Shown here piece after piece: positions 3,997 to 57,434 of a stretch of DNA of 64,000 bases. Every line of letters starts with the position of its first letter. Position 1 is the first letter of the stretch. The notes under the pieces are model-generated. The model worked only from the letters and a program-made list of their open reading frames with translations. It was not told where the DNA came from and ran no database searches. The DNA comes from an uncultured Chloroflexia bacterium (GTDB taxonomy: Bacteria; Chloroflexota; Anaerolineae; Anaerolineales; Villigracilaceae): NCBI GenBank assembly GCA_963847105.1, contig CAWJYP010000003.1, positions 558,409-622,408 on the forward strand, read 5' to 3'. Made by a program: the position numbers and the translations under genes.

Positions 3997-4075
3997 TCTT
4001 GCTTATCAGGAATAGGCTGGTGAAATCACAGTCTTTGCACCAGCTCGCTGCAATCATTATCGAGGAGAATGAAGT

Positions 4076-4585: not shown

Positions 4586-4595
4586 AGGAGAAAAA

Positions 4596-5108: not shown

Positions 5109-5196
5109 AGAAAAATTCTACTCATCTATGTGGAGAAAAAGACGTAATAAGTAGTGCGACTGAAGAATGCAGACAACAATATTTTAGGAGAGAGAC

Positions 5197-5718: not shown

Positions 5719-5838
5719 AAAAGAGTTGATTTTCCAGGGTCAATCAACGAATCGGGCGACCCGAAGCATCCGCCGGACGGGTGACCGCCCGAGTGAGTCG
5801 AAACAGAAACCGAACACACAGATACACAGGAGCGATCC

Positions 5839-8800: not shown

Positions 8801-9600
8801 CTGCTCCGACAGCCAATCCCATCACTGGCAGCAGCATCGGTACGGATATCCTGATAGGCAATAATGGCTACGCTACCATGGTTGGGACTGTTGACAATAA
8901 TAGTATCGACGCCAATCATACGGTCGGCGGCGGTGCGGGCAACGGCATCGGCGGCGGCAACGGCGTGGCGGGAGCCGGTAATGCGTGGACGCCGGACCTG
9001 ACCTTGACCGTTACCAATAACACCATCACTGATACCGACGGAAACGGAATTCTGCTGGTAGGACGCGGCACGTCCGGAATCGCCCGGTATGGTATTCGCA
9101 ACAATACCGTAGCCGCTCCGCTTAGCGGTGTGCGCCCCGGTATCCGCGTAGATGCAGGCAATGCCTCATCGGCGGATGATTCTATTTGTCTCGACATCTC
9201 GGGTAATACCACTGCAGGAAGCGGCGGGCATGAGGGCATTGGCCTGCGCAAGCAAGGCACGAGCTCGACCGTGAACGATTTTGGCATTGAGGGCATGTCG
9301 GCAACGACCACCCCTGGCATCGAGACTTATGTTGGCAACACAGGCCTAAACCCGGGCTCGGCTAGTGGATCTTTTGGTGTCAGCGGAGTTCTGCTTATCT
9401 CTGCCACCAGTGGGTTTTCAAATTGCTCAACGACGGCAATGGCGCCAGACAATAACCAAACCCTGGCACAGGTCCAATCGGAACCCAACCCGGTTGTTCT
9501 TGCCGAATCCGCTCCTGTATCTGAGATCGACAAGAGCGTCAACGCCACAACGAGTGTCAATCAGATTCTCCAGGCAGGCCTCATGGATAGAGAAGAATGA
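5839..9600 (+). CDS. Giant membrane-anchored surface protein with a DUF11-like module, an Ig/cadherin-like module and a long right-handed beta-helix repeat region
   Basis: 1253 aa, with AGGAG 6 nt upstream of the ATG. N-terminal anchor: AISAWRVSVFLILALMAVLATYTIV. It also has ADPGETIEYTVVIPNNGPTDATGVTFND and GNFSYTPPAGFSGADHFDYMLTD. A Gly/Thr/Asn/Ser-rich body follows, with periodic NNTITNPGFGGINLVG, NNITSAGGTGIQVS, NNSISIDPTGANAIIVAN and NNTITDTDGNGILLVG. Confidence 0.8.
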   Translation: MPSSKRPNKSEQFMTRHAISAWRVSVFLILALMAVLATYTIVRAAVDIAPTKTDFIINDDGDGKADPGETIEYTVVIPNNGPTDATGVTFNDIIDLNTTFVDGSLNVSPLAGDDSYQTIGNTMLAVGVTPSTDTPAVIVINPATDSLFDNDTEFLGDTFTLKSVEADTTAPFTTATEQGGSVTVETDGNFSYTPPAGFSGADHFDYMLTDDELTGAGRVTINVTTERVWYVKNNAAPGGLGRSNDPFDTLLEAQTASSVNDTIYVFTGSGTTGQNTGIILKNGQRLLGEGVDLTVPVSVNGGPNPTNLRTAGTRPTIGNTTGDGVMVSTVSIGGSFSGVEIRGLDISVSGAGTNAVDVTTNSTFSGSFELADNVIGAAGVEGVDVNGGGSGTLTISLHDNTVTATGNGIDIVRSTAVGSVYIIAFDDNVVTGATGGIGINVTGSGWPVQFDSNTGTAAYDTVSGGTMVIGSSGAGNGVGNNGMVLSPIRGDLSFTDLDIYSDNGAALTITGTSSDFLASGTGTRLTVNTGTPSLVAVNGPALSTNLTNINIVPSTFSSTNSTSTGVSLIETSGTFTAPTGSSITNATGVDFFVNGNSISAATVSVTYPGTITDTSGRLVYIQNVTGASPTYAFSGAISGSGSTSTGVLLDNNDGATIRFSGGLALSTGSNTAFSAINGAAAVEVCDENPCNPAATGALVNTLTSTTGTALNVANSTIGVNNLEFKSIAANGAANGILLNVTGSTGGLVVKGDSGSSNNSSGGTIQSSTGDGISLTSTRNVSLDQMNIQSTGGSGINGTGVTNFAFTNGTIANAGNASFKSAIGFNGGAVSPGFGNNINGTLTVTGNTFTNPFYSAVEIQSDNGTVTVADISNNTITNPGFGGINLVGIGNVTTSFNLNRATINQNNITSAGGTGIQVSIGNSNTYGPGATAGSLATGSDIISITNNSISIDPTGANAIIVANSGGNNASRTKTNFLIQCNGKNSGGCSAPTANPITGSSIGTDILIGNNGYATMVGTVDNNSIDANHTVGGGAGNGIGGGNGVAGAGNAWTPDLTLTVTNNTITDTDGNGILLVGRGTSGIARYGIRNNTVAAPLSGVRPGIRVDAGNASSADDSICLDISGNTTAGSGGHEGIGLRKQGTSSTVNDFGIEGMSATTTPGIETYVGNTGLNPGSASGSFGVSGVLLISATSGFSNCSTTAMAPDNNQTLAQVQSEPNPVVLAESAPVSEIDKSVNATTSVNQILQAGLMDREE

Positions 9601-10246
9601 GGCGGTCGGCACTGCTCCCGTTACCCTTGATGCGGTATCACAGGAAGGCATGCCAAGCCAGTTACAGGTCCTCCTTGCGCCGGGGAAAACCCCCGAGAAC
9701 GTCCCTGTCTCGATTGGGACTTTACCTGCCGGCAAGAGCGTTACGATCAAGTACCGTGTAACAGTCGATAATCCCATGGATAATCCGGTGGGCGCATTGA
9801 GGATTTTAAACCAGGGGACTGTATCGGGTATCGGCTTCCCCAGTGTGACCACGACCGATCCTTCTCCAAATCCTGATACCGCCTGCCTTGGAGCGGGCAC
9901 TAAAACCTGTACGCCCATCGACCGGCCCGATACGACTGTCACATCGATAAACCTGGCTGGCAGCAGTCCTACGAATGTAGGTTCTGTATCCTGGACGGTC
10001 ACATATGCCTCTGCGGTGAATGGCCTGACAAGCAGTAATTTCAGCCTGATAAATATCGGATTGACCGGCACACCTGCCATTACCGATGTGAGTCCGGTAG
10101 GCGCAGTCCCGGCTACCACATGGGTGGTCACAGCCAGTGCCGGTAGCGGCGATGGCACGCTGGGCCTGAATATGGTCAACGACAGCGGTTTCTCGCATGA
10201 TACGACCAATTTACTCTTCACCGGCCAGGTATATGTGATCGATCAT

Positions 10247-10895
10247 ACTTCTCCCACGGTAACGATTAACCAGGCTATCGGGCAGGCCGATCCGACCAAT
10301 GACGGTACGATCAACTTCACGGCTGGTCTTCAGCGAAGCGGTCGCCGGTTTTGGAACAGGCGATGTTAGCCTGACGGGAACCGCCGGAGCGACCACCGGC
10401 AGCGTCACCGAGGTCGCGCCGATGGACGGCACCACCTATAACGTGGCTGTCAGCGGCATGACGATCAGCGGGTCTGTCATCGCCTCGGTGGACGTAGGCG
10501 TGGCCCAGGATGCGGCTACCAATCCCAATGACGCATCCACCAGCACCGATAACACGGTGGCTTATGACATTACCGCACCGACGGTGACGATCGACCAGGC
10601 CATCGGGCAGGCCGACCCGACCAACAGCGGCACGATCAACTTCACAGTGGTCTTCAACGAAGCGGTCGCCGGTTTTGGAACAAGCGATGTATCTCTGACG
10701 GGCACCGCCGGAGCGATCACCGGCACTGTCACCGAGGTCGCGCCGATGGACGGCACCACCTATAACGTGGCTGTCAGCGACATGAGCGGCAGCGGGACCG
10801 TGATCGCCTCAGTAGGCGCAGGCGTGGCGGAAGACACCGCCACCAACCCTAACGGTGCCTCCACCAGCACCGATGACACGGTGACTTATGACATT
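10247..10895 (+). repeat. Tandem pair of about 108-aa (about 324-nt) coding repeats (module A)
   Basis: Both copies contain near-identical DNA, for example gtcaccgaggtcgcgccgatggacggcaccacctataacgtggctgtcagcg at 10407-10458 and 10731-10782. A degenerate third copy lies at about 12001-12325. Confidence 0.8.
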
Positions 10896-11696
10896 AACGC
10901 ACCGAACTCCACCATCGACCCTCCCTTACCTGCCAACCCGACCGCCATCACCAGCGCCAGTTTCAGCTTCAGCGGAGACGATGGCAGCGGTAGCGGTGTA
11001 GCCGGTTTTGAATGCAGCCTGGACGGTGGTTTCTCAACCTGCACAAGCCCACAGAACTATGACAGCCTTGGCGATGGAAGCCACACTTTCCAGGTTCGCG
11101 CCATCGACGATGCCGGGAATATCGACCCCACCCCGGCCACTTACACCTGGGTGGTGGACGCGACCGCACCGAATACGACCATCACCAGCATCCCCGGAAA
11201 CCCAACGACCAGTACCGATGCACATATCATTTTCAACGGGGACGATGGTACTGGCACCGGTGTGGCAAGTTTCGAATGCGCTCTGGATGGAGGCTTCTCC
11301 GCCTGCACCAGCCCGCAGGACTTCAGCAGCCTCAGTAATGGCAGCCACACCTTCCGGGTACGCGCTATTGACAATGTCGGGAATACCGATGCCACACCTG
11401 CATCCTTTACCTGGGTGGTGGACACGATCGCACCTGATACGAGTATTATCGGCGGCCCAACCAACCCGACCAATGGCACTGTCGCCTCTTTCACCTTTGG
11501 CGGCAATGATGGTACCGGTACGGGAGTAGCCAGTTTCGAATGCGCTCTGGATGGCGGCTTCTCCGCCTGCACCAGCCCGCAGGCCTACAGCAGTCTCACC
11601 CCGGGCAGCCACACCTTCCAGGTGCGTGCCATCGACGTTGTTGGGAATACCGACGCCACTCCTGCGTCCTTTACCTGGGTGGTGGATACAACTGCC
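10896..11696 (+). repeat. Three tandem coding repeats of about 88-89 aa (module B)
   Basis: The unit xAPxTTIxxxPxNPTxxxxAxFxFxGDDGTGxGVAxFECxLDGGFSxCTSPQxxxSLxxGSHTFxVRAIDxxGNxDxTPAxxTWVVD occurs three times in a row. Confidence 0.8.
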
Positions 11697-13056
11697 CCGA
11701 CGGCGGTAATCACTTCCACTGCTCTGGATCCGACCAACACCTCGCCAATACCTGTTACGATCACTTTCAGCGAACCTGTCTACGGCTTTGGCTCCCTGGT
11801 GGCTGCTGATGACCTGGCAATTAGCAACGGCACGGCCAGCGACCTGATCTCGGGCAGCGATGGCGATACCGTCTACACATTCGCCATCACTCCTGTCGGG
11901 CAGGGCACAGTGAGCGTCTATCTGCAGACAGGTAGAGTACACGACCTGGCTGGGAACAACAATAGTGAGGTTTCCAACACCTTAAGTCGCAACTACAATT
12001 CGATCAAGCCCACCGTGACGATCGAACAGGGTGGAAGCCAGACCGATCCGACCAACTTTAGCCCGATCAACTTCACGGTGGTCTTTAGCGAACCCGTCAA
12101 CAATTTCGGCACCGGGGATGTGGATTTGAGCGCCAGCACTACGCTCGGAACTCTCAGCGGAATCGTATCTGAAGTTGCGCCAATGGATGGCACGACTTAC
12201 GATGTTTCCGTCAGCGGTATGAGCAGCACTGGGGCGGTTATCGCTGCCGTCCCGGCGGATGCAGCCTGGGACACTGCCGCCAACGGCAACGATGCCTCCA
12301 CAAGTGTCGATCATTCCGTCGCTTATACGGCGGCTGCGCCTGTTATCACTGAAGGCGCCAGTATCAGTATCACCATGTCGAAGAACGGCACCCCCATCCC
12401 CTTCGCCTTGACGCTGCACGCCACCGATGCCAATCTTGATCCGTTGACATGGAGCATCCTGACCCCGGCCGACTTCGGCACTGCCGATGTGGGAGCTAGC
12501 ACTGGGATCGTCTCATACACGCCATCACTCAATTACACCGGTCTGGACTCGTTCACGGTTCAGGTTTCAGACGGGTATGGCGGCACAGACAGTATCACCG
12601 TCAATGTGACCATCCAGGCTCCGGCGGTCATAACCAGCCCCAACAAAGTAACGTTCACGGTTGGCCATGTCGAATCCTTCACGATAACCACCACCGGCTT
12701 CCCGACCGGCGCGTCGATGTTGATCTCAGCGGTAGGCCCCCTGCCGGACTTTGTGACGTTCACGGATAACCATGATGGCACAGCAACTCTGGCCGGGGTT
12801 CCCATGGACGGCACCACTGGGACCTATCTAATAACGATAACTGCCGCCAATGGCGTGGGTTCAGTTGCCGTTCAGACCTTCAGCCTGAAGGTCTGGGAAA
12901 AGCCCATTTGGGAGATCTATCTTCCATTGTTGATTCGTTGAGCAGTGACCGCTCGCCAAATAGCAGATCGCCTGGACGGAAGGTATTGAGTAGGTCCGGG
13001 TCTTTCCAATCAATGCCCCGGGACGCAGATAACTTTCGGATCGCTTATTCCAAAAA

Positions 13057-25380: not shown

Positions 25381-25540
25381 GGTTTTTTCCTCTCAGAATG
25401 GTTTATTGGATAAATTACATCTATTATGTCGCCTTACTCTCCAAAAGGTTACAGAATATTAGAGCAGAAAATACCAGATTCCCGGATGGTTCCTTTTATG
25501 GGTTTTTCCCTTATAATCTACTTTGGCATGAGGCGAACCA

Positions 25541-28500
25541 ATGACGCATAGTTCCCAATTTATTGATAGCAGGCAAAATATCGGTGCCAGGCTCTCCGGG
25601 AGGCCGACTTTTGGTTTCATCGTGAACTGGGGGCTATCTAATCCATATAGCAGCCCCATGTGGTGGGGAGCAGCCATTGCCGCCGAAACCCTGGATGTTA
25701 ATTTGATCGGTTTCGGGGACATCAACATTTATGACCTCGCCCGCAACCCATCCCTCTATCGTCAGATCGACCCCGCTTCCCTGGATGGTCTGGTGCTGGT
25801 CAATGCCATCTATCCACGCCTGCCTGCGGGCATCTTTAGCTCCGTGCCGATCGTAAACATCGGTTATCCCATGGAAGATGTTATCTCCTCGATCTTGATC
25901 GACAACCATGAGGGAATGCGCTCTATTGTGCGGCATATGATCGAGATCCATGGCTGTAAAAAGATCGCTTATATCAAGGGGCCAACAAACAATCCCGACG
26001 CGGCCGAACGGTTCCGGGCTTATCAGGAAGAGTTGGAGGGCCACGGATTGACCATCGATCCTGACCTTCTTTACCAGCCATTTGACTGGTCGCCTCCGGG
26101 CGGGCGGGAGGGAGTGCGGACCTTCCTGGACGAGAACCAGGCCAAATTCGACGCTCTGATCGGTGCCAACGATAATCTGGCTCTGTCGGCCATGGCGGAG
26201 TTGCAGCGACGGAAGATACATGTGCCTTACGATGTGGCGGTTTGCGGGTTCGACGATGCTCTTGAATCGGCAACCAGCACGCCCACACTCACCACCGTCC
26301 GCCAGCCAACGCAAAAAATGGGGCTGCTGGCTCTTGAGGCATTGCTGGCATACCACCAAGGGAAAAGTGTGCCGCCCAGGTTATTCCTCCCCACCACCTT
26401 GCTCTTGAGGCGTTCCTGCGGCTGTGTATCCGGATCGGTGGCAAACGTGAATCAGGGCATGCCCGCCGCCCAGACCGCTGCCGTGAGTGTTATCCACCAA
26501 AAACAATCTACAGCCGTTTCACTCCTGCGAGAGCGCCGTGAAGTGTTGATCCGGGAAATGCAGCGGGCGGCGTCCGTGGATGAAGAGCCTATCTTCTCCG
26601 AAACAGCGGGGAAGTGGTTGGAAGCCCTGATGGCGAGTCTGGAAAACTCAGATGACGGTGAAGCCTTCCTGACCGCCATAGACCTGACCTTTCGCCGCCT
26701 GATGGAGCACCAGACCCCCGTGGCGGGATTGCAGAATGTGCTTTCAGCGCTGCGACGGGAAGGCTGCCGGGCTTTGGCCGAACAACCCGCCTCATTGGCT
26801 CAGGCAGAAAATCTCTGGCATCGGGCGCGTGTGTTCATCAATGAGCTTACGCTCCAGCAGCAGAACCAGAAACGCCTGCAGATTAACGACCAGATGGCTG
26901 TCTTGCACAGTATCAGCCAGACCATGGCTGTCACCTTCCACCTGGAAAACTTGATGGAAATTCTTGTGCGAGACCTGACCCTCCTTGGGATAGAGAGCTG
27001 CTATGTGGCGGTCTATGAAGGGGTGAACCGGCCGGCCGATAAAGCCCGGTTGATCCTGGCGAACCGGAATGGACACAAGCTGGCTTTAAAGGGGAAGAAG
27101 CATTTTCCCGTCAGCCAACTGCTGCCGGAGGAGATGTGGGGAACCGGCCGCCGCACGATGGTACTGGAGGCGTTGGAATTCCAAAGCGAGGAAATAGGAT
27201 ATGTGCTTTTCGAGGTCGGTCCGCAGGATGGAGCCATTTATGAAGCATTGCGGAGCCAACTAGGTAGCTCGATCAAGGGCGCGGTGCTCTTCGATGAGCG
27301 CGACCATTTGTTGACCAAAACGACCCAACTCTATCGCCAGGCGGCGGCGGGACAGCGGCTTGCAGAAGAAGCCAATCGCTTAAAGAGCCGCTTCCTCTCG
27401 ATGGTCAGCCATGAGTTGTCAGCGCCGTTGCACCTCATCACCGGCTTGAGTGAATTGACCCTGCAGGAAGCAAACAGCGACAAGCCCCTGAATGGCGAAA
27501 ACTTGAAATTGATGCACGTCACGGCTCAGCACCTGGATACCCTGGTGCGTGACGTTTTGGATCTGGCCCGCGAAGAGATGGGTCAACTGCGGCTGGTTTG
27601 CGAACCGATCGATCTCTCCAATGTTCTTGAAGCGGTGGTGGTACTGGGCGAGCAACTGGCCCAGGAACATCACCTCAAGTGGCGATACGAATCCATTTCC
27701 CACCTGCCATTGATTTGGGGAGATCCAACCCGCTTGCGCCAAGTAGTATTGAATCTGCTAAACAACGCGGTCAAATTTACTGAAAAAGGGGAAGTGCGGC
27801 TGCGGGTGGCCCAGGACGGAGAGCGGGTCACGGTCTCTGTAAGCGACACAGGTCTCGGCATCCCACCGGCGGAACAGGGGGTTATCTTCGACGAATTCCG
27901 CCAATCCGACCGGACATCCGCCAGGGGGTATGGCGGTCTTGGGCTGGGCCTGGCTATCTGCAGAAGGCTTGTGAATATGCACGGAGGTGAGATCGCTGTT
28001 CGTTCCTCGGGTATCGAAGGGGAGGGGGCGACCTTCTTCTTTAGCCTGCCGACTCTCAAGGCTACGCCGGTTGATGTGGGTCAGCATGATTCTGTCTGGA
28101 TCCTTACCTCCGACCGACAAAAAGCGGAAGGACTGTGCCTGTATCTTAAAGACCAGGGACTGAATGCCGAGGTCCATTTATGGGATCGTGCCGGGAAATG
28201 GCTGGCGCATGCAGTTCAGGATCCCCCGACGGCGATTGTGGTGGATGGCGTAAAATCCCACAAGCGTGGCCTGGAGGCTATGAAGTCTTTGCGGGCCAAT
28301 CCTGTCACCAATGAAGTCGGGTTGGTATTCTATACCCTTCAAGAAGGCCGGGATAACGGTGCTGTTCTGGAATTGGATTTCTTAAATAAGCCCCTGAACA
28401 CGAACGAGTTGGTGAAAGCGCTGCAGCGTTTAGGCAAAGTGCATACGGGGACAGCGGTTGATGAGATGGCGGGGAGCTGCCAGACGATCCTGATCGTGGA

Positions 28501-29188
28501 TGATGATGCTGGCATTTTGGATATGCATTCCCAGATGGTCCGGGCCAAATATCCGCAGCATCAGATCTTGACGGCCTCGAATGGGAAGGAAGCGCTGGAC
28601 CGCATCAAAAGCAGCCGCCCGGACCTTGTTCTGCTGGACCTGATGATGCCTGAAATGGACGGATTCACGGTGCTCGAAGAAATGCAGAAATTGGAAAACG
28701 CTCATCAGGTGCCGGTCATCGTAATCAGCGCCAAAACCCTTACCGAAGAAGAAATGGCCCGCCTCAACCGGAGCGTAGCGGTGATCTTGCGCAAAGGTAT
28801 GTTCACTTCCGCTGAGACGCTCGATCATATTAAGGATTCTTTGCTCCATCGACAGAAGTTGAGCAGCGAAGCCCAGCGGGTTACTCGCAAGGCTATGGCC
28901 TTTATTCATGAACATTCCGGCGAGACCATCGGGCGGGAGGATGTTGCCCGCTACGCCGGGGTCAGTGAAGGCTACCTGTCCCGTTGTTTTACCCAGGAGA
29001 CCGGTTGTTCATTGATCCACTACATCACCCGCTACCGCATCCAGCAGGCTAAACAACTGCTTTCCAACGGCGACCTATCCATCACCGAGATTGCCCTGGA
29101 AGTTGGTTTCTCCGACAGCAACTATTTCAGCCGCGCCTTTCGCAGAGAAGTCGGTCTCTCACCCCTCGCTTTCCGCCGAAAACAATAA
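25541..29188 (+). CDS. One-polypeptide hybrid regulator: LacI-type sugar-binding (PBP1) domain + histidine kinase + receiver domain(s) + AraC-type HTH
   Basis: 1215 aa with no TM segment.
- PBP1-like N-terminus: KIAYIKGPTNNPDAAERFRAYQEEL...NDNLALSAMAEL...VAVCGFDD...LTTVRQP.
- H-box: RLKSRFLSMVSHELSAPL.
- ATPase: LNLLNNAVKFT...DTGLGI...GGLGLGLAICRRLV.
- Receiver: ILIVDDDAG...LVLLDLMMPEMDG.
- AraC HTH: SEGYLSRCF...SITEIALEVGFSDSNYFSRAFRREVGLSP. Confidence 0.85.
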   Translation: MTHSSQFIDSRQNIGARLSGRPTFGFIVNWGLSNPYSSPMWWGAAIAAETLDVNLIGFGDINIYDLARNPSLYRQIDPASLDGLVLVNAIYPRLPAGIFSSVPIVNIGYPMEDVISSILIDNHEGMRSIVRHMIEIHGCKKIAYIKGPTNNPDAAERFRAYQEELEGHGLTIDPDLLYQPFDWSPPGGREGVRTFLDENQAKFDALIGANDNLALSAMAELQRRKIHVPYDVAVCGFDDALESATSTPTLTTVRQPTQKMGLLALEALLAYHQGKSVPPRLFLPTTLLLRRSCGCVSGSVANVNQGMPAAQTAAVSVIHQKQSTAVSLLRERREVLIREMQRAASVDEEPIFSETAGKWLEALMASLENSDDGEAFLTAIDLTFRRLMEHQTPVAGLQNVLSALRREGCRALAEQPASLAQAENLWHRARVFINELTLQQQNQKRLQINDQMAVLHSISQTMAVTFHLENLMEILVRDLTLLGIESCYVAVYEGVNRPADKARLILANRNGHKLALKGKKHFPVSQLLPEEMWGTGRRTMVLEALEFQSEEIGYVLFEVGPQDGAIYEALRSQLGSSIKGAVLFDERDHLLTKTTQLYRQAAAGQRLAEEANRLKSRFLSMVSHELSAPLHLITGLSELTLQEANSDKPLNGENLKLMHVTAQHLDTLVRDVLDLAREEMGQLRLVCEPIDLSNVLEAVVVLGEQLAQEHHLKWRYESISHLPLIWGDPTRLRQVVLNLLNNAVKFTEKGEVRLRVAQDGERVTVSVSDTGLGIPPAEQGVIFDEFRQSDRTSARGYGGLGLGLAICRRLVNMHGGEIAVRSSGIEGEGATFFFSLPTLKATPVDVGQHDSVWILTSDRQKAEGLCLYLKDQGLNAEVHLWDRAGKWLAHAVQDPPTAIVVDGVKSHKRGLEAMKSLRANPVTNEVGLVFYTLQEGRDNGAVLELDFLNKPLNTNELVKALQRLGKVHTGTAVDEMAGSCQTILIVDDDAGILDMHSQMVRAKYPQHQILTASNGKEALDRIKSSRPDLVLLDLMMPEMDGFTVLEEMQKLENAHQVPVIVISAKTLTEEEMARLNRSVAVILRKGMFTSAETLDHIKDSLLHRQKLSSEAQRVTRKAMAFIHEHSGETIGREDVARYAGVSEGYLSRCFTQETGCSLIHYITRYRIQQAKQLLSNGDLSITEIALEVGFSDSNYFSRAFRREVGLSPLAFRRKQ

Positions 29189-45914: not shown

Positions 45915-46007
45915 TCGTCACTTGCCTAAGGTTATAATTGAGATGCTTGGCATCCTTCCAACAAGGATGCCTTGAAATACTATTCCCAGAAATTACTCGG
46001 AGGAGAG

Positions 46008-47190
46008 ATGGACATCTTTGAAAAGTGTTCCAGATTCACGGCAGCGAAGGAAGCTATCGCGGCGGGGTTGTATCCTTACTTTATCCCATTGGAGAAAAAC
46101 GAAGGCACCGAAGCGGTCTTCAAGGGTCGTCGCCTGATCATGTGCGGATCGAATAACTACCTCGGCCTGACAACTCATCCGCAGGTCCGCCAGGCTGCTC
46201 TGGACGCCATCAATCAGTACGGCACCTCTTGTACCGGTTCGCGTTTCCTTAACGGTACCATTGAACTGCATGAGCAGCTGGAGAAGGAACTGGCCGAATG
46301 GGTCGGCAAGGAAGCCGCCTTGGTCTTCTCGACCGGCATGCAGACCAACCTGGGTGTGATCAGTGCGATTGTCTCCCGGGATGATGTGGTCATCCTCGAC
46401 AAGCAGGATCATGCCTCCATTGTCGACGGGGCGAAACTAAGCTGGGGAAAGACCGTCCGTTTTCGCCACAATGATATGGCAGATCTTGAGCGGGTTTTAT
46501 GTCTGGTGGGCGATGGTCCTGGAAAACTGGTGGTGGTGGACGGTATTTACAGTATGGAAGGGAGATATCGCGCCTCTTCCTGAGATCATCATGTTGTGCA
46601 AGAAATACGGGGCCAGGTTGATGGTCGATGATGCCCATGCCGCCGGTGTGCTCGGCGGTGGGCGGGGAACGGCCGCCCATTTCAATGTCACTAAAGATGT
46701 GGACCTGATCATGTCCACCTTCAGCAAATCCTTCGCTTCACTGGGCGGTTACATTGCCGGTGATGCAGATATCATCCACTTCATCAAGCATAACGCCCGT
46801 TCGCTCATCTTCAGTGCCAGCATCCCGCCAGCCAATGCCGCCGCAGCCCTGGCAGCCTTGCACGTGATGCAAGCGGAACCCGAACGGGTACAGAGGCTAA
46901 CGGATATTGCCTCCCATATGCGGACAGAATATCGGCGAATGGGCTTCGACATCGGAAAATCCGAGACGCCTGTCATCCCCATCCTCATCGGCGACGACAC
47001 GCGTACTTTGACCATCTGGAAGACCCTCTTCGAGGCGGGCATCTTCGTCAACCCGGTCATCTCGCCAGCCGTCCCGGAAGGGCATCAACTCATGCGGACT
47101 AGTTACATGGCCACCCATACCGATGAACAGATGGCGCGCGTCCTGGAGACTTTCGCCACGGTCGGTAAAGCGGTGGGGCTGATATCATAG
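46008..47190 (+). pseudogene. Alpha-oxoamine synthase resembling serine palmitoyltransferase, with one frameshift at about 46560-46563
   Basis: Fragment 1 ends ...KLVVVDGIYSMEG|RYRASS*. The other frame continues GDIAPLPEIIMLCKKYGARLMVDDAHAAGVLG...STFSKS (PLP lysine). Removing one base from gaaggg-a-gatatc restores SMEGDIAPL. The N-terminus GSNNYLGL...GSRFLNGT and the C-terminus HTDEQMARVLETFATVGKAVGLIS are collinear with Sphingomonas SPT as I recall it. Confidence 0.75.
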
Positions 47191-47192
47191 AA

Positions 47193-47435
47193 TTAACCGG
47201 CGGGGATTGCTACGACCTGGCGCAACCAGGAAGCCGGGCTCGGAATGATATTCACAACGCCTACCCGGCGGCGGACTTTGCCATGCAGCCTCTCCACGCC
47301 ATTGGTGGTACGGATCAAACGCCGATGGGCAGCTGGGAACAAGAAATCCGTCAGTCCTTTCGGGCTGTTCACAGCCGCCCTTTCGGCCAAGCGGGGGGTG
47401 ATTTTCCGGACCTTCTCAATCCCTTTCTCCAGTTA
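47193..47435 (-). mobile_element. C-terminal remnant of an IS256-family (Mutator-type) transposase
   Basis: An 80-codon open stretch reads LEKGIEKVRKITPRLAERAAVNSPKGLTDFLFPAAHRRLIRTTNGVERLHGKVRRRVGVVNIIPSPASWLRQVV. It carries the family signature FP...I.TTN.(I/V)ER(L)... It is preceded by an in-frame TAA, and no N-terminal or catalytic part is present. Confidence 0.65.
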
Positions 47436-47644: not shown

Positions 47645-48721
47645 ATGACAAAAAAGAAAAAAAGCTTCCTCGGTCACGTGGTGGTCGGATTCTGGATCAT
47701 TAACATGGTGCTTTTACTGGTCGTGGTGGCCGGCTGGCTGTTTTCCTCGAACGCATCGGTGCACGCCTTCTTCATCAGCCCGACTCCGACCGCTTCGGCC
47801 ACGCTGACCAGCACACCCAGCCAGACGCCGAGCATCACCCCATCACCCACAAGTACCCCCTCGCCGACGGCCACCTTCACCCCGACCTTAATCCCAACCG
47901 ACACGCCAACCAATACGCCAACCAACACTCCGACACCGCTAGTGGTGGCCGTCATAGGCGATTACGGCATGAACAATTCTGCCGAAGCCGATGTGGCCGC
48001 GCTTATCCACGGCTGGCAGCCGGACATAGTCATCACGGTGGGGGACAACAACTATGCCTCCGGTTCGGCGGACACCATCGACGCCAATATCGGCAAGTAT
48101 TTCCATGATTATATTTTTCCCTATACCGGCAGCTACGGTCCAGGCTCGGACGTAAACCGATTTTTTCCAATCCTGGGCAACCACGACTGGAACACCGCCG
48201 ACGCGCAGCCATATCTGGATTATTTCACCCTGCCCGGCAACGAGCGCTACTATGACTTTACCTGGGGACCAGTTCACTTCTTTGCGCTCGACAGCTGTTT
48301 GCGCGAACCGGACGGGGTGAATGCCAACTCGGTGCAAGCAGCCTGGCTACAGCAGGGACTGGCAGCTTCCACTTCCCCCTGGAATGTTGTTTATTCCCAT
48401 TATCCATCGTACTCGTCCGGTTACCACGGTTCCACCAGTTGGATTCAGTGGCCGTTTGCCGCCTGGGGCGCGGATGCGGTGCTGCAGGGTCACGACCACA
48501 ACTACGAGCGTTTGCTGGTGGACGGCATCCCGTACTTCACGAACGGAGTGGGCGGTCAAACGCGCTACTACTTCAATCCCGTCCTCCTGCGTCAAAGCCA
48601 GTTCTTCTACAACGACAATTTCGGCGCGATGCGGGTAACCGCCACCGAGACGATGATGCTGTTCGAGTTTTTTAACCGGGTAGGGGAGTTGATCAATTCG
48701 TACCAGGTGACGAAGCCGTAG
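47645..48721 (+). CDS. Membrane-anchored calcineurin-like metallophosphoesterase
   Basis: It has a TM anchor and a Thr/Pro/Ser linker. Metallophosphoesterase motifs follow: VIGDYG, GDNNY, GNHDW, GHDHNYER. Confidence 0.8.
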   Translation: MTKKKKSFLGHVVVGFWIINMVLLLVVVAGWLFSSNASVHAFFISPTPTASATLTSTPSQTPSITPSPTSTPSPTATFTPTLIPTDTPTNTPTNTPTPLVVAVIGDYGMNNSAEADVAALIHGWQPDIVITVGDNNYASGSADTIDANIGKYFHDYIFPYTGSYGPGSDVNRFFPILGNHDWNTADAQPYLDYFTLPGNERYYDFTWGPVHFFALDSCLREPDGVNANSVQAAWLQQGLAASTSPWNVVYSHYPSYSSGYHGSTSWIQWPFAAWGADAVLQGHDHNYERLLVDGIPYFTNGVGGQTRYYFNPVLLRQSQFFYNDNFGAMRVTATETMMLFEFFNRVGELINSYQVTKP

Positions 48722-48906: not shown

Positions 48907-51827
48907 TTAGTATTTATTCTCCATCTGCGGGGGGAATAATTCTTGCATTTCTTCATTACTCAAACCAAAGAAAGACTGTAAGTGTTTTTTCTCTATCTCT
49001 GGCTTTTCTATAATACTTTGCCGCACCCATCCTACATGTAGTTCCCAGGGACCCCAATTATGGGGCCATCGCGCAACATTCCTTGGCATTTCAGATTTAA
49101 TTTCTGCGATCATAGAATCGTAAATGGGTAGTAAGCGCGTTGGATTAAAATAAGTACTTGTGTACAAAGCGTAACGCCTAATAAATTCTCTTTTAAATTG
49201 ATCATTCCTCAATAAATTCACCTGCAGCGTTGTATCGATCCAGCGGCCAGCACCCATGCCATCCGGATTAAAAATTTGCTCGGAGAGATTATTCCATGTA
49301 TACGTCCCATGAAATAGCGCCCAGTCCATATCGTAAAGAACCCAGCGCCACTTACCGCCATTCTGATCGCGCCAAATCTGGATATTCCCTAAATCCGTAT
49401 TTCCAAAATAACTTTCAATAATTAACCAATCAAGATAATTATCCACATCAATTTGAGAGGTCACATACTCATAATATTCCTGGTTTTGCATATCATGAGT
49501 TGCAACATATTCAACCAAGGCTTTATAAGCATCTTCACTGCCAGCCATTGCAGTGCCATTCCAAACAAGGACATCCACTTGATCCGGATCCACACCATAA
49601 TGACTTGCTAAATAATCTTCATTCACTTTTTCGCGAATGTTATAAAGCCCCCAATATTCCCCGTTGATATACACCACGCAAGGTCTTGAATCCATGACAT
49701 CAATATCAAGCACATCACTGACAACTCTATGAATAAATGCATCTTTGATCTTGGTCATATTTTGATCTTGCCCGGAGGTGCGTAGCAAGAAATGCTTGAA
49801 AGAAGTCACTTCATTTCCATCAAAAAGAGGATAATTGATTTCCTCGAGTGCCATACTCATTTCTCAAGCGAATTGCAAATGATTTTTGCGGCATCGCCTG
49901 ACTAAAGTTCCCCGCAATTTCAATTCCGGCATCAAAAGACAATGCCAGCCCATCGGTTTCATAAAACTCAATATGCACAGGTCGCTCGATATCATTAAAC
50001 GGATATGCATAAATACCCGCGCCTCCAAACAAATTCTCAGACTCCGTTGATAAAGCAATAATAGGCAGATCATGCTCCACACCGACAATGTACGTTTGGG
50101 TTGTCACGATCGAAGGTAGTTGTCCATCGGCTATTGCGATAGCTCGAACTGTCCTGGATGAATCTAACACAATTGGACTTCCATAAAAAATATCTGATGA
50201 TGTAGGTAATGACCCATCCAACGTAAAAAAAATCGCCGCCCCTTCTTCTGCAGTAAGCGTCAACGACTGCTCACTTGAAATTTCGCCACCATTAAGCGAG
50301 AATTTAACAGGGGCCGAATATCGATTTACAGCAATTGTAGAATTGATTTCCCCTGGTGTTGGTCTGTCAAAATAAACTCTTTCTCCATTTTCATTCAAAC
50401 CACTTGATGCGTTCTTTTCAAGGAGGCCTGTTTCATAAATCTGCGGCTCATCACAATCAACATCGCAAAGATACAGCGTCTCTCCAGAAGCACTGATAGA
50501 AAATGGCACGTAATTCCTTGTGCCATTTCCATCAACTTCTGCATCCACATAAAAAACAGCGAAACCGTTCGCAGGAAGAACATAATCCGAAAAAACAAAT
50601 CTTGTTTGCTGGTCCGAGCCCTTGCTGAGGGAATATCCTTGTAGATTAATGTCTTGGTCTGTATTATTCTTCAGCTCAATCCAATCATAAAAGTTACCAT
50701 TGGCATCAGTTAAAAATGAATTCATTCTTCGTCATCACCTCATTGATAAGAACATCCCATATCTTGCTTGAAGGTTTCAACTCGTCCGTAAAGCCATGTG
50801 TGCTGTTTTCTTCTCCTGGCGTAGGCTCAGAAAAATAAACCCATTCACCACTCTTAACTCCTCTTGAAATATCTTCTGACAAAGGATCGATCGTTAGTTC
50901 AACCAGTACTTCTCTATATTGATTGGAAATCACCAACGTCTCATAATCAGATAAACGGAAATTTGTATGCACATTTATTGTAACTTTGTCTTTTCCAGAA
51001 GCATAAATAACTAAATAAGATCTTGGCTCAATGACTATATTGGGAAACGCCCATTTTCGCAGATTCGTTTTATTGTCTGTAAAATATAGATGGTCAAGCG
51101 AAAATGGCTCATCGCTATCATTATAAAGTTCAACCCAATCAACAAAATCGCCATCCTCATCATAGAGCACAGATCGATTATCGGTCATATATTCAGTAAT
51201 CATTAAAGGAGAATCAGTAATACCGTTAAAATCCGCTGTCTCCTGTCCGTCCGTGCCATTTTTTTCATTGGGTGTTGGATGATTAAAATAAAGCCATTTA
51301 CCTTCTTCGTTCATCCCATAAGATATATCTGTATTCAACGGTGGAATTTCAATGGAAGACATCAACGTACCGAGAGCAGATGTAAAATATAGTGTTTCGC
51401 CAAGTTCGGCATTTAATTTAAAATTTGAATGCAAATTCCCAGAGTCGTCCAATGTGTCCAGGCCCGATGCATAAACAATCTTATATTGATTCGGACCGAT
51501 CTCAAAATCTGGAAATTTCCACATCAAAGGATCATCAATATTTGTAGATAGCCCCGCACTTTTAAGGTTAATGACCTCATCACCCGAATTATAGAATTCT
51601 ATCCAATCTGAACTTAAACCAAACCCATCCAATATGGTCAACGAATTGGATGACATCACTTCAGTAATAATAATCTTTGACTGTCTCTGGAAAATTACAT
51701 TTTGGTTTTCTATTTCCAATTGCTTCAGTTCTAATTCAACTGCAATTCTCTTTTCAACGGCAACCATTGCAAACACGAATCCGGCAATTAATCCGAATCC
51801 AATCAGTACAATTAAGAATCCTGGCAA
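48907..51827 (-). pseudogene. Large CotH kinase family protein with N-terminal TM anchor and lamin-tail-like domains, carrying two frameshifts (about 50720 and about 49849)
   Basis: ORFs 50706..51827, 49820..50725 and 48907..49860 overlap end to end. The joins read ...VLINEVMTKNE|SFLTDANGNFYDWIELKN... and ...KSFAIRLRNEYG|LEEINYPLFDGNEVTSFKHFLLRTSGQD... The LTD-like motifs (INEVM..N...DWIELYN) recur three times. The C-terminal part has YINGEYWGLYNIREK. Confidence 0.75.
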
Positions 51828-51857
51828 AAAGAGAAACTGGTTTATCCATGATTATTT

Positions 51858-52526
51858 CTAGACAGCAAAATCACCATCATAACCAAGCAGCGCAACGGAA
51901 TTCACATTAGTAATTCCCCCAATTTTATTTACGAGACTGGCTGTCTTTTTTCTTTCTCTGATCTCAACAGTCAATTCATAATTTTCACCATTAAAAACTT
52001 TTGATTTCAATCGATATCTATTTGCTTCTCTCTCAATGAGCTTGAATACCAGATCATTCGTTTCTTCTGTCTTATAGGAGATCACCAACAAATATGGCGT
52101 TTTCACATCTGATATTTTGGAAAATACAAACAAAATGATTCCAATTAATACAGAAGATATCAACGCTAACATCCAAAGCCCCGCGCCACTTATGATACCC
52201 ATGCCAATTGCCCAAAATAAATAAGCGATATCAATCGGATCTTTGATAGCAGTACGGAATCGAACAATGGATAAGGCGCCCACCATACCCAGGGATAAAA
52301 TGATATTACTCGAGATAGCCAGGATGATGGATGAAGTAATCATAGACATGGCAATCAATGTCACATTAAATGTCTTTGAATACATCACGCCTTTATAACT
52401 TACTCGATAGATAAAAAAGACGAACAAGCCTAACACAAATGAAAAAAGCAGCGTGTATGCAATTGACATCACGGATAGTTCAGCCGTAAAAAAATCTGTG
52501 TTCTTGATAAAATCTTCCCAGGTCAT
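51858..52526 (-). CDS. DUF4956 family membrane protein
   Basis: 222 aa. The sequence LSLGMVGALSIVRFRTAIKDPIDIAYLFWAIGMGIISGAG matches my recollection of DUF4956. It sits 30 nt upstream of the CotH gene and 16 nt downstream of the VTC gene. Confidence 0.75.
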   Translation of the reverse strand: MTWEDFIKNTDFFTAELSVMSIAYTLLFSFVLGLFVFFIYRVSYKGVMYSKTFNVTLIAMSMITSSIILAISSNIILSLGMVGALSIVRFRTAIKDPIDIAYLFWAIGMGIISGAGLWMLALISSVLIGIILFVFSKISDVKTPYLLVISYKTEETNDLVFKLIEREANRYRLKSKVFNGENYELTVEIRERKKTASLVNKIGGITNVNSVALLGYDGDFAV

Positions 52527-52542
52527 TTGTTCTCCTTTTTAT

Positions 52543-53217
52543 CTACATGCCAACAACATAGCACTTAGCGTATTTTGAAATGGATTGCCGCTGAAGGTTA
52601 TTTATTTGGATCATATTTCGGATCACATCAGGGAAATATCCTGTATATTTCACTTCAAGAATAATTTGATCATGTGGAATTGCTGAGATCATATACCCAT
52701 TGGAGAACAAATCTTTTTGGAAAACTCCTGCCTTAAGTAAAGAATCAAATGTAATTCGAACATCTCCATATTTATAGATGAGCGCTTCACGACGATATTC
52801 TACAACTACCCTTGGGCGTAAGCTCCTGGTTTGATAATTAAGATAAAAGTCTTTAGCAACAACATTATCCTTCTGCCGCAAAATACTTACGTCACCACTA
52901 ATAAGAGTGTCGTATTCTTCCTTTGAGATTCGAATATGTGATTTTTCAGTAACAATCTCTCTTTTGATTTTTCTTTCCAGTTTGATGGCATTAGGTTGAT
53001 GATTGTAAACACAAATCCTGAATTTCTTTCGTTCTCTTACCCCATTCACCTTATCAAAGAATGCACATTGATTGTAGTCATCAAAATATAAACTTGTGAC
53101 CAAATATCCCCCATCTGCATTACTAAAAGAATCCCGCTGACATATATTACTCAATTTATTTGCCATCACATTTTTTTGATGGGCATTGATAAAAAACTTT
53201 AATTCGTTTCTATACAT
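52543..53217 (-). CDS. VTC domain (polyphosphate polymerase-like, triphosphate tunnel) protein
   Basis: 224 aa. Sequence: MYRNELKFFI...YLVTSLYFDD...RKKFRICVY...IKLERKIK...EVKY, an alternating basic/hydrophobic beta-strand pattern typical of bacterial VTC-domain proteins. Confidence 0.7.
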   Translation of the reverse strand: MYRNELKFFINAHQKNVMANKLSNICQRDSFSNADGGYLVTSLYFDDYNQCAFFDKVNGVRERKKFRICVYNHQPNAIKLERKIKREIVTEKSHIRISKEEYDTLISGDVSILRQKDNVVAKDFYLNYQTRSLRPRVVVEYRREALIYKYGDVRITFDSLLKAGVFQKDLFSNGYMISAIPHDQIILEVKYTGYFPDVIRNMIQINNLQRQSISKYAKCYVVGM

Positions 53218-53450
53218 AATTGAAATGCTTTTTCTTTATACCCAGCGGAACTGAGAGTTTCGGCAGGTTTGGAAGAGTGCCTGGCAGGGAATGCCGTCGG
53301 GATTCGGCAGGCCAATGAACTGCGTAGCCCGTGGTATTATACATCAAGCGCCACTGGCGAACCAAGCCGTAGGGCGCTTTATTTGAAGTTTATGATCAGG
53401 TGACTCCAACAAACGGTCAATGGGTCTGTATGAAATAGAGCAGGAGAAAA

Positions 53451-55271
53451 ATGGTAAACAAACGGATTTCCCCATTCTTTCACGTTATTATTTTTTGTTT
53501 ACTCGCATCGAATTTGATGATGGCTGGCTGTACGCCAGGTCAGCCATTCAGCCCCACAATACCGCCCAGGCAGACCCCTTCGAACACACCTGCTTTCCCC
53601 GCTATATTCACACCGACCTCATCACCAACTTTCTCTTTGCCAATTGGATTGGATACACCTATCCCTTCATTTGAGCCTATCCGTGAGGAAAATATCAACC
53701 AGATTCAATTGATTGCAAGCATCCCTGAAAATCCAGAGAGGATCTATAGAATATCTTCCGATAACAGGTTGCTATTTCGTGTCGATACCCATGGAATTGA
53801 CGTTTTTAACATAAGCACAAAAGCGCTTGAAACGCATTTACCTTTTGGCGTTACTTTTAATGTTTTTTCCTATGAAGTAGAACCCTCCGGTATCAATGAA
53901 AGCCATTTTTCAATTTCTGCGAGCGGAAATGTTCTTGCAATAATCGATTTTGAAGGAGTGAAGGTTATCTCCCTGGAAGGAAAGGTGCTCTTTTCATCTG
54001 CCCTCGAAATGCCCATCTCCCCTGATAGTTCTCCACGAGAAGTTACGATTGGGTACAGTCTGGCACTATCGCCGAATGGAGAATATTTAGCTTTTCATAG
54101 TTCTGCCAATGGTATTGCCGTGGTACAACTGTCTGACGGGAAAACGATCGATACACCGAATCTGATTGGAAATTATCCGCGTTTTTCTCCAAGTGGGAAA
54201 ACCCTTGTGACCATGACCAACAACCACCTTGAGTTTTGGAATACGACCGATTGGACAAAAATCCAGGATATTTATTACAAAGGATATTGGCCTCTCTTTA
54301 CTTTCGTCAGCGACTCCACCATTCTCCTTCATAATTGGAGCAATACTTTAGAATTATGGGACATTATTCATCACAAGAAAATCCGCACGATCAACCTGGA
54401 AGGTGATCCCCAAAAGTCCATCATCCTTGCACAGCCTCTCATATCACCCAATGGCGAGTTCCTCGCAGTGTTGAAAAGAGACACAGAGGCACCTTGCTTC
54501 GAATTAAGTCCGATAACAGTAACAGTATTCAACTTGAATGGAGAAAAACTGTCCGAGCAGACTACTCCTTTTACATCCAGAAATTGCAAGGCATATTTTC
54601 TTGGTCTGGCCTACATATCGTCGCCAATATACCTGATGGACAGCGGAGAAGCCATTACTGTATTGCCCCCCTCCAATGATAACCAATGGAGAACTATTGT
54701 ACAGGAGGTGGATATACCCTATGCCCCAAAAATATTGCCGCCAAAGGCTGAGTCTTATCTCCAGCGGAACTGGATGGATTTTGATTATGGCTTTGAACTT
54801 TCGCCCGATGGCAGGTATGTTGCCTTTTCATTGCAAAAAGGTACGGGCAGTTCGATAGTGCTATATGATATTTCAGCAGACGAGCAGCTTTATTGGGGGA
54901 GCGCATCCTTTACATCTGGAAGCTTCTCTCCGGATAGTACCTTATTTATTATGAATCTCTGGAATACGATAAAAATGATAGATTTGTCTTCTACCGGAAA
55001 TTTGCAATCCGTGACTGTCTACGAAGATCAGTGGTTGGTACCCTATGCCCCCATGGCTATTTCGCCCGACCTTAAGATGTTGGCAGCAGTTATCGCGAAG
55101 GACGCCATGGGCGAAACGGTGGGTTTCATTAAAATAAGCGATGGTACCCTGATGTATCAATGGCCAGCAGGAAATGACGAAATGTATCACATCAGGTTCT
55201 CCGAAGACGGAAAATATCTTCTGGTATCAACTTATGGTGGATGGATTGATATTTTTGGTATCTATCCTTAA
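53451..55271 (+). CDS. Lipoprotein with beta-propeller (WD40/TolB-like) repeats
   Basis: AGGAG lies upstream. Lipoprotein signal: FFHVIIFCLLASNLMMAGC. Recurrent units include SPNGEYLAF, SPSGKTLVT, SPNGEFLAV, SPDGRYVAF, SPDSTLFIM, SPDLKMLAA and SEDGKYLLV. Confidence 0.7.
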   Translation: MVNKRISPFFHVIIFCLLASNLMMAGCTPGQPFSPTIPPRQTPSNTPAFPAIFTPTSSPTFSLPIGLDTPIPSFEPIREENINQIQLIASIPENPERIYRISSDNRLLFRVDTHGIDVFNISTKALETHLPFGVTFNVFSYEVEPSGINESHFSISASGNVLAIIDFEGVKVISLEGKVLFSSALEMPISPDSSPREVTIGYSLALSPNGEYLAFHSSANGIAVVQLSDGKTIDTPNLIGNYPRFSPSGKTLVTMTNNHLEFWNTTDWTKIQDIYYKGYWPLFTFVSDSTILLHNWSNTLELWDIIHHKKIRTINLEGDPQKSIILAQPLISPNGEFLAVLKRDTEAPCFELSPITVTVFNLNGEKLSEQTTPFTSRNCKAYFLGLAYISSPIYLMDSGEAITVLPPSNDNQWRTIVQEVDIPYAPKILPPKAESYLQRNWMDFDYGFELSPDGRYVAFSLQKGTGSSIVLYDISADEQLYWGSASFTSGSFSPDSTLFIMNLWNTIKMIDLSSTGNLQSVTVYEDQWLVPYAPMAISPDLKMLAAVIAKDAMGETVGFIKISDGTLMYQWPAGNDEMYHIRFSEDGKYLLVSTYGGWIDIFGIYP

Positions 55272-56912: not shown

Positions 56913-57434
<522 letters not shown>

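Follow-up and report, generated by a model that had tools for sequence, protein, structure and literature searches.

What does a protein with the catalytic fold of a eukaryotic polyphosphate polymerase do in a bacterium, when its gene stands next to genes for a membrane protein and for a kinase directed out of the cell? The question is raised by three adjacent genes in a 64,000 nucleotide (nt) stretch of DNA (the window) of contig CAWJYP010000003.1, from an uncultured bacterium of the Anaerolineales (Chloroflexota). They encode a VTC-domain protein, a DUF4956 membrane protein and a CotH-family protein, and together they form the Anaerolineae version of a conserved envelope-spanning module. To our knowledge, bacterial polyphosphate synthases other than PPK1 and PPK2 have not been described, and polymerases of the Vtc4 type are considered eukaryotic. 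Public data hold VTC proteins in at least 4050 clusters at 50% identity (4050 cluster representatives at E<=0.001), with the catalytic residues kept.

The three genes (lengths in amino acids, aa) are as follows.

52543-53217, minus strand: VTC-domain protein, 224 aa (Pfam PF09359, E=5e-33)
51858-52526, minus strand: DUF4956, MgtC/YhiD-like membrane protein, 222 aa (Pfam PF16316, E=5e-13)
48907-51849, minus strand: CotH gene, in four frame segments as assembled; 979 aa when three inserted bases are removed

An earlier reading of this DNA made without database searches (the sequence-only reading) had described three co-directional minus-strand genes at 48907-53217, and the open reading frame listing and Pfam scans agree with it. 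Its VTC, DUF4956, lamin-tail (LTD) and CotH domain calls were right by Pfam hidden Markov model (HMM) search. The module is of a known but uncharacterised kind. New here are a form in Chloroflexota that is independent of the pel genes for Pel biosynthesis and has the gene order VTC-DUF4956-CotH (V-D-C), an anchored CotH decorated with LTD domains, and an additional phosphoesterase. The window adds a Chloroflexota example, in a copy probably damaged by assembly errors, and the comparative analysis adds the mainly pel-independent occurrence of the trio, a rule of gene order, a recurrent metallophosphoesterase and the conservation of a Lys of active Vtc4.

Linkage of the trio across genomes

A scan of one genome per species with a 10-sequence VTC alignment gave 80 genome-collection loci, and 90 loci were analysed in all. 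The scan taxa were Thermotogota, Clostridia, Bacilli, Coriobacteriia, Verrucomicrobiota, Campylobacterota and one Bathyarchaeia metagenome-assembled genome (MAG). To call the neighbouring genes, HMMs were started from the window proteins and iterated. A locus with 5 kb or more of sequence on each side is termed well-flanked; the genome collection has 53 of these.

DUF4956 is directly downstream of VTC in 87 of the 90 loci, with a median of 32 nt between the VTC stop and the first aligned DUF4956 residue. The well-flanked loci have DUF4956 in 52 cases and an adjacent CotH in 46 (87%), in several phyla, which is the conserved co-occurrence that had been expected for the trio. This linkage is far beyond chance. 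The predicted division of the proteins between cytoplasm, membrane and outside is conserved with it. VTC proteins lack a hydrophobic segment in 88 out of 90 cases, all of the DUF4956 proteins are polytopic, and an N-terminal hydrophobic segment is present in 73 of 78 linked CotH proteins, in keeping with the extracytoplasmic position given to CotH in the sequence-only reading.

Descriptions of the trio from 2019-2020 present it as accessory genes that directly adjoin the pel operons of Gram-positive bacteria. In Streptococcus intermedius the accessory genes SIR_1594, SIR_1593 and SIR_1592 are cotH, a 'polyphosphate polymerase' and DUF4956, respectively, and the authors of a 2025 study of this species reported no synteny of the three genes outside pel loci. 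The NELoc-2 locus of Clostridium perfringens also has VTC and CotH genes. In the present set, PelF and DUF2194 genes are beside the trio at 20 of the 80 genome-collection loci (18 of the 53 well-flanked). Pel genes are missing from 29 of the 45 complete trios that have 5 kb or more on each flank. The order CotH-VTC-DUF4956 (C-V-D) is found in 19 out of 19 pel-linked trios, and none of the 30 V-D-C loci is pel-linked (loci L011-L090). The window has the V-D-C order. No pel gene was found in its 64 kb using HMMs made from the PelF, DUF2194, PelD-like, PelE-like and DUF4832 neighbours of other loci, nor in any Anaerolineae locus examined. The trio is mostly pel-independent, contrary to the published synteny claim, and gene order separates the pel-linked from the pel-free forms. 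The literature is corrected in that the module is not Pel-specific, and the organisms in which it could be tested are widened to Paenibacillus, Clostridium and Thermotogota.

The window trio and the pel accessory genes have in common three adjacent, co-directional families and their predicted locations, with a secreted CotH, a cytoplasmic VTC protein and a four-helix membrane protein with an ACT domain. They differ in the absence of pel from the window, in gene order and in host phylum. The pel accessory CotH is approximately 570 aa with one FN3 domain, whereas that of the window is approximately 980 aa, anchored, and carries three LTD domains and a CHB_HEX module. The window also adds a metallophosphoesterase and a beta-propeller lipoprotein.

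One locus (L053), on a contig binned as Bathyarchaeia, has the unique order DUF4956-CotH-VTC and a 1252 aa LTD-bearing CotH. This trio could reflect gene transfer or a binning error.

The proteins and their conserved residues

The VTC domain covers residues 3-220 of the 224 of its protein and is its sole Pfam domain, SPX being absent; no hydrophobic segment is seen by hydropathy. The best matches in the PDB to its AlphaFold2 (AF2) model (predicted local distance difference test, pLDDT, 87.6) are to the yeast Vtc4 catalytic domain (Foldseek E=3e-12 to 5e-11, TM-score 0.65-0.73). Generic CYTH/TTM enzymes match less well (E>=1.5e-8, TM-score 0.41-0.58), as does Vtc2. The analogy with yeast VTC drawn in the sequence-only reading is thus borne out, Vtc4 being the best structural match. 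Searched against solved structures as a single sequence, the protein returned only noise, and a family profile was needed: that of 47 homologues matches the Vtc4 catalytic domain (3g3q) by sequence with E=0.003. Its close relatives, from metagenomes and Anaerolineales MAGs, are 69-86% identical, and the next nearest are at about 42%.

Cryo-electron microscopy has identified K200, R264, R266, K281, Y359, R361, S457 and K458 as the triphosphate ligands of Vtc4 and E426 as the Mn ligand. All of these are required for polyphosphate in vivo, with a phenotype reported for R266A, and K458 is the single residue lost in the inactive Vtc2 and Vtc3 (bioRxiv 10.1101/2023.01.27.525886). In the printed alignment to 3g3q, R264, R266, K281, Y359 and R361 correspond to R67, position 69, K83, Y141 and R143 of the window protein. 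K200, E426, S457 and K458 correspond to K7, E188, S214 and K215 by motif position and conservation, rather than by a printed structural alignment. The ligand equivalents are invariant or nearly so in both close (alignment A2) and distant (alignment A3, 31-42% identity) homologues, and the Lys equivalent to K458 of active Vtc4 is invariant in the VTC family. The VTC protein is therefore described here as a soluble, Vtc4-like putative polyphosphate polymerase.

One of these positions differs in the window copy.

53011-53013, minus strand: VTC codon 69, TGT (Cys), at the R266-equivalent position; codon read directly

This position is Arg in 46 of the 47 sequences of alignment A2, the exception being the window copy, and by motif count Cys69 is peculiar to that copy among the 120 homologues listed. 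The tunnel Lys, Arg and Glu residues whose retention had been made a test of the VTC assignment are kept at the level of the family, but not in full in this copy. The Cys might reflect either a true hypomorphic allele or a mistaken base. If the change is real, as it may be, the window protein may be impaired as a polymerase. At family level, none of the three points on which the sequence-only reading had staked its proposal (domain assignment, co-occurrence and the tunnel residues) went against it.

No fusion of VTC with DUF4956 was found among the 150 best representatives, in which the extensions of the longer homologues are N-terminal and free of domains. Five VTC homologues (P0134, P0136, P0143, P0144 and P0238) have N-terminal extensions of 140-400 aa that are of low complexity, rich in Lys, Glu, Pro and Gln, and without a Pfam domain.

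The DUF4956 protein has approximately four transmembrane helices by hydropathy. It matches MgtC (PF02308, E=0.0016) at 19 bits against a cut-off of 31, and NCBIfam PRK09977 (NF007431, E=5e-7) at 29.5 bits against a cut-off of 214. Homologues are named YhiD by JGI. Residues 145-215 are modelled by AF2 as a beta-alpha-beta-beta-alpha-beta domain (pLDDT 72-84), which in Foldseek matches the ACT domains of IlvN and RelA and the C-terminal domain of NikR (E=5e-4 to 3e-3). The model of the membrane part is poor, with pLDDT of about 45-60. Across 89 diverse proteins the most conserved block is residues 74-115, in which R89, R91, K95, D96 and D99, a cluster of basic and acidic residues, are almost invariant. 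Like the MgtC/YhiD/SapB proteins, which it matches weakly but consistently by profile, the family has a hydrophobic N-terminal part and then a small cytoplasmic domain of ACT-like type. It differs in being a Pfam family of its own, in its distinctive SLGMVGALSIVRFR..KDP.D block, in its obligate pairing with VTC, and in that the matches fall below cut-offs.

The features of the CotH protein, numbered on the 979 aa sequence, are given below.

51756-51825, minus strand: signal anchor, residues 9-31 (hydropathy maximum 2.88)
50357-51677, minus strand: three LTD domains, approximately residues 58-192, 214-343 and 365-497 (Pfam PF00932)
50090-50293, minus strand: CHB_HEX_C_1/Fn3_assoc module, residues ~519-586 (PF13290 E=2e-15, PF13287 E=2e-13)
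49042-49930, minus strand: CotH atypical-kinase domain (Pfam PF08757, E=4e-41)
49883-49885, minus strand: K655
49393-49395 and 49384-49386, minus strand: catalytic-loop D818 and N821
49330-49332 and 49324-49326, minus strand: metal-binding D839 and D841

The signal anchor is predicted to place the remainder of the protein outside the cytoplasm. Of the LTD stretches, the first frame piece carries two (E=9e-23) and the second carries the other (E=1e-11). The CHB_HEX_C_1/Fn3_assoc module was absent from the domains listed in the sequence-only reading; the CotH family profile matches the equivalent CHB_HEX-type modules of 8ayr and 6q63. A search of solved structures with the CotH domain alone gave no match, and one with a profile of close, full-length homologues found nothing beyond the CHB_HEX module and antibody-like noise. 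When a diverse set of 59 CotH domains from trio loci was made into a profile, it matched Bacillus cereus CotH (5jd9) with E=1.5e-51. In the alignment to 5jd9, N-T-D818-L-G-N821 is the catalytic loop (NxD..N) and Y-D839-M-D841-W is the metal-binding WDYD (WDxD) motif. K655, D818, N821, D839 and D841 are invariant in the CotH alignment (A5). In the same alignment to 5jd9, D818 and D839 occupy the positions of Bacillus subtilis D228 (catalytic) and D251 (metal-binding), which are published inactivating positions (PMC7821199). On these residues the kinase domain looks active.

The Bacillus CotH structures (5jd9 and 5jda) thus share with the window protein the CotH kinase fold and the aligned catalytic and metal-binding Asp residues. 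Bacillus CotH uses ATP and acts inside the mother cell. The window protein differs in being apparently exported and anchored, in its surface-binding modules, and in belonging to an organism without a sporulation context. The substrates of Bacillus CotH are the coat proteins CotB and CotG (PMC7821199).

A fourth gene is convergent with CotH.

47645-48721, plus strand: membrane-anchored calcineurin-like metallophosphoesterase, 358 aa (Pfam PF00149, E=5e-14)

Its product begins with KKKK and a transmembrane anchor, followed by a linker of Thr, Pro and Ser, and is predicted to be extracytoplasmic. Orthologues 73-76% identical adjoin the trio at three other Anaerolineae loci (L002, L004 and L009), in varying relative positions. 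Anchored, purple-acid-phosphatase-like relatives are 100-860 nt upstream of VTC at nine Paenibacillaceae loci, and 15 of 17 linked metallophosphoesterases have an N-terminal hydrophobic segment. An exported metallophosphoesterase is thus a probable recurrent fourth partner of the module, in two distant phyla. In yeast, the product of VTC is processed by an endopolyphosphatase of this superfamily, the lumenal Ppn2 (PMC7381174).

Competing accounts of the module

The favoured account, by analogy with yeast and as the simplest in which every part has a role, is that polyphosphate would be made inside the cell, moved across the membrane by or with DUF4956, used outside by CotH and trimmed by the phosphoesterase. 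Synthesis, transport and outside use, which the sequence-only reading had also suggested, are each inferred. The VTC protein, seated on a DUF4956 oligomer, would build polyphosphate from the gamma-phosphate of ATP in the manner of Vtc4. DUF4956, which would be translationally coupled to VTC, would deliver the polymer, or its phosphoryl groups, to the outside of the membrane. There the polymer could serve as phosphoryl donor or co-substrate for CotH, which would phosphorylate a surface glycan or protein. The exported location of CotH would argue against a ready supply of ATP, and a polymeric donor would solve the absence of ATP outside the cell. Trimming or recycling of the polymer would fall to the metallophosphoesterase, in the role that lumenal Ppn2 has with yeast VTC. 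If the module does make and export polyphosphate, the source of bacterial surface and extracellular polyphosphate would be explained, as would the phosphoryl donor of exported CotH-family kinases. This account is held tentatively, at rather less than an even chance, because the streptococcal phenotypes seem at odds with a simple linear pathway and the nearest relatives of DUF4956 are regulators and not channels. The wider proposal, of a third, PPK-independent bacterial route to polyphosphate in which the exported polymer feeds an extracellular CotH kinase with no need for extracellular ATP and the phosphoesterase recycles it, is doubtful.

The likeness to yeast VTC (Vtc4/Vtc3/Vtc1) extends to the catalytic fold, to the triphosphate and Mn ligands including the K458-type Lys, to a cytoplasmic enzyme tied to a membrane protein, and to a metallophosphatase-superfamily enzyme beyond the membrane, comparable to Ppn2. 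In contrast to yeast, the window trio has no SPX domain, no fused three-helix VTC transmembrane domain and no nearby Vtc1-like subunit. The membrane protein paired with its VTC enzyme is unrelated to the yeast one, being MgtC/YhiD-like and bearing an ACT-like domain. Any polymer that is made would leave the cell and not enter a vacuole, and an extracytoplasmic kinase is attached to the system.

A number of observations weigh against polyphosphate export. Since the VTC protein has no transmembrane segment, SPX domain or Vtc1-like subunit, the coupling found in yeast is not simply transferable. DUF4956 resembles MgtC/YhiD, and the known role of MgtC is in regulation and not in transport; the AF2 model of the membrane part of DUF4956 is too unreliable to show a pore. 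We know of CotH kinases only with ATP as donor. CotH cannot be an obligatory partner, since the VTC-DUF4956 pair is found without it at 13 genome-collection loci out of 80. The window copy has Cys69 in place of a catalytic Arg, and the three frame breaks are clustered in the 2.9 kb CotH gene while four neighbouring genes have none. In the 2025 study of S. intermedius, deletion of the DUF4956 gene raised Pel and deletion of cotH lowered it, although both reduced aggregation in sputum medium; no change in aggregation or Pel was visible when the VTC gene was deleted. This pattern, with opposite Pel effects of the DUF4956 and CotH deletions, does not resemble a simple linear pathway. The statement in the sequence-only reading that no function had been shown experimentally for the trio must be qualified by these phenotypes, but it holds for biochemical activity: in the literature searched, none is reported for any bacterial VTC member.

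It is possible, if unlikely, that the polyphosphate or a short chain stays cytoplasmic. DUF4956 would then be an MgtC-like regulator or anchor, its ACT-like domain tuning phosphate or ATP homeostasis, and CotH a separate function that is only co-regulated. The MgtC/YhiD-type matches and the ACT-like C-terminal domain of DUF4956 fit this well, as do the loci without CotH. The opposite Pel phenotypes of the two mutants suggest regulation, and the S. intermedius authors themselves proposed that polyphosphate may remain cytoplasmic. However, 87% of the well-flanked loci, from a range of phyla, have an adjacent CotH, which nearly always carries an export signal, and extracytoplasmic metallophosphoesterases recur beside the trio. 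A lasting link of the trio to two phosphate enzymes outside the cell is left unexplained by a cytoplasmic polymer.

Whatever the role of the module, the cassette might be in the course of being lost from this genome, with CotH a true pseudogene, the polymerase inactivated by R69C and the locus functionless. This is improbable. Aligned to the intact orthologue at L008 (86% nucleotide identity), the window gene has exactly three 1-nt insertions and one in-frame 3-nt insertion at 49285. There are thus three breaks and not the two that had been claimed.

51815, minus strand: frame break 1, 1-nt insertion after codon 11 (missed by the sequence-only reading)
50720, minus strand: frame break 2, 1-nt insertion after codon 376, creating the palindrome GAATTC
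49846, minus strand: frame break 3, 1-nt insertion after codon 667 in the kinase domain, creating the palindrome CTCGAG

With the three bases removed, CotH is 979 aa with no internal stop. The true start is ATG 51849, 8 nt past the DUF4956 stop. TTG 51827, where the start had been placed because only two breaks were seen, is not the start. Accordingly, of the 16 and 30 nt gaps given earlier, the 16 nt between VTC and DUF4956 stands and the 30 nt between DUF4956 and CotH becomes 8 nt. As assembled, the copy would be without a functional CotH.

In favour of loss, three breaks fall within 2.9 kb, and the VTC, DUF4956, propeller and metallophosphoesterase genes have none. R69C is unique among the 120 homologues listed, at a catalytic position. 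True gene remnants are present nearby, in the form of an IS256/Mutator transposase fragment and an alpha-amylase fragment. Against loss, the corrected CotH has a single private departure at 284 otherwise conserved columns, which is the family median, and no in-frame stop; the corresponding figures are 0 of 87 for DUF4956 and 1 of 73 for VTC. Three indels acquired through neutral decay would be expected to come with many substitutions, and these are not seen in CotH. Long-term decay of CotH as a pseudogene is rejected on this private-substitution test. In addition, all four frame breaks that were placed to the base in the window are 1-nt insertions, three in CotH and one in an unrelated aminotransferase gene. 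Intact CotH orthologues of 971-1154 aa are found in short-read contigs, whereas in L001, a 421-kb contig with a long-read-style name, CotH and several neighbouring genes are likewise split. Because the corrected CotH shows no relaxed selection, having indels without accompanying substitutions, errors of sequencing or assembly are the most probable cause of the three breaks, with a recent true inactivation the less likely possibility.

The aminotransferase gene (class I/II, 8-amino-7-oxononanoate synthase-like; 45942-47187, plus strand) is read in two overlapping frames because of one extra nucleotide near 46560, which interrupts the Pfam profile at position 160/161. The break is of the same type as those in CotH and occurs at GATATC. 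The palindromes at the breaks could be coincidence or a motif-linked base-calling artefact.

Returning to the family, the VTC protein might be no polymerase but a hydrolase or sensor with the tunnel fold, for example a tripolyphosphatase or a nucleotide triphosphatase, as most bacterial CYTH/TTM enzymes are, and might signal to DUF4956 or be regulated by it. The characterised bacterial and archaeal tunnel enzymes among the fold matches (ygiF, Sulfolobus TTM and CYTH) are hydrolases or cyclases, and the lack of a reported activity for any bacterial VTC protein leaves room for such a role. It is nonetheless quite improbable, since Vtc4 is clearly the better match, in structure and in sequence, than any hydrolase TTM, and the Lys that separates active Vtc4 from inactive Vtc2 and Vtc3 is invariant in the family. 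Barely tenable is the trio as a dedicated accessory unit of Pel biosynthesis, modifying or regulating Pel as proposed for streptococci: the published pelDEADAFG association, the Pel-level phenotypes and the PelF and DUF2194 neighbours at a quarter of the genome-collection loci speak for it, but a Pel-only role is rejected on the pel-negative window and Anaerolineae loci, the predominance of pel-free complete trios and the split in gene order.

Neighbouring genes and base composition

Two further features adjoin the trio upstream of VTC.

53218-53450: divergent intergenic region, likely to hold the promoter or promoters; sigma-70-like match on the minus strand at 53420-53392
53451-55271, plus strand: beta-propeller lipoprotein, 606 aa (weak WD40/PD40 matches; signal sequence; lipobox MAGC)

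The sigma-70-like matches in the intergenic region, which are matches to the consensus only, number 27 against 20.4 +/- 4.7 in shuffled sequences and are not enriched. A terminator scan gave a signal no higher than in shuffles, and an Rfam scan of 44-58 kb of the window gave zero matches. The propeller gene is divergent from VTC. Its association with the trio is confined to Anaerolineae, where orthologues adjoin the trio in either orientation at L002-L005 and L008. Elsewhere, an OmpR-type response regulator and a HisKA histidine kinase adjoin the trio at approximately 14 loci in Clostridia, Thermotogota and Paenibacillus.

Two-component system beside the trio: L012, L026, L029, L032, L042, L043, L051, L057, L061, L068, L072, L077

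The trio is in a low-G+C block of 38%, against approximately 54% for the remainder of the window. It is 10-20 G+C points below its flanks both in the window (48907-55271, 0.38 against 0.54) and at five of six related Anaerolineae loci (L002, L004, L006, L008 and L009). The low G+C persists in a host of 64% G+C, where the trio is at 53%, and the flanking genes differ between loci. These two features suggest that the cassette keeps its low G+C and may be mobile.

At the edge of the low-G+C block, between the aminotransferase and metallophosphoesterase genes, there is a C-terminal fragment of a Mutator/IS256 transposase (47193-47420, minus strand; profile positions 305-368 of 379). On the other side of the trio, an alpha-amylase remnant (56931-57431, plus strand) covers profile positions 1-137 of 446, with the rest missing, and is followed by a minus-strand amidohydrolase gene.

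Two other regions of the window deserve mention. At 4073-12938 (plus strand), three tandem phage-tail-collar (Collar) genes precede a gene for a very large Ig-like/cadherin-like surface protein. The latter is in three overlapping frames (5797-9597, 9350-10366 and 10263-12938), which may represent two more frame breaks. At 25532-29185 (plus strand), a single polypeptide of 1218 aa combines periplasmic sugar-binding, histidine kinase, receiver and AraC-type DNA-binding domains.

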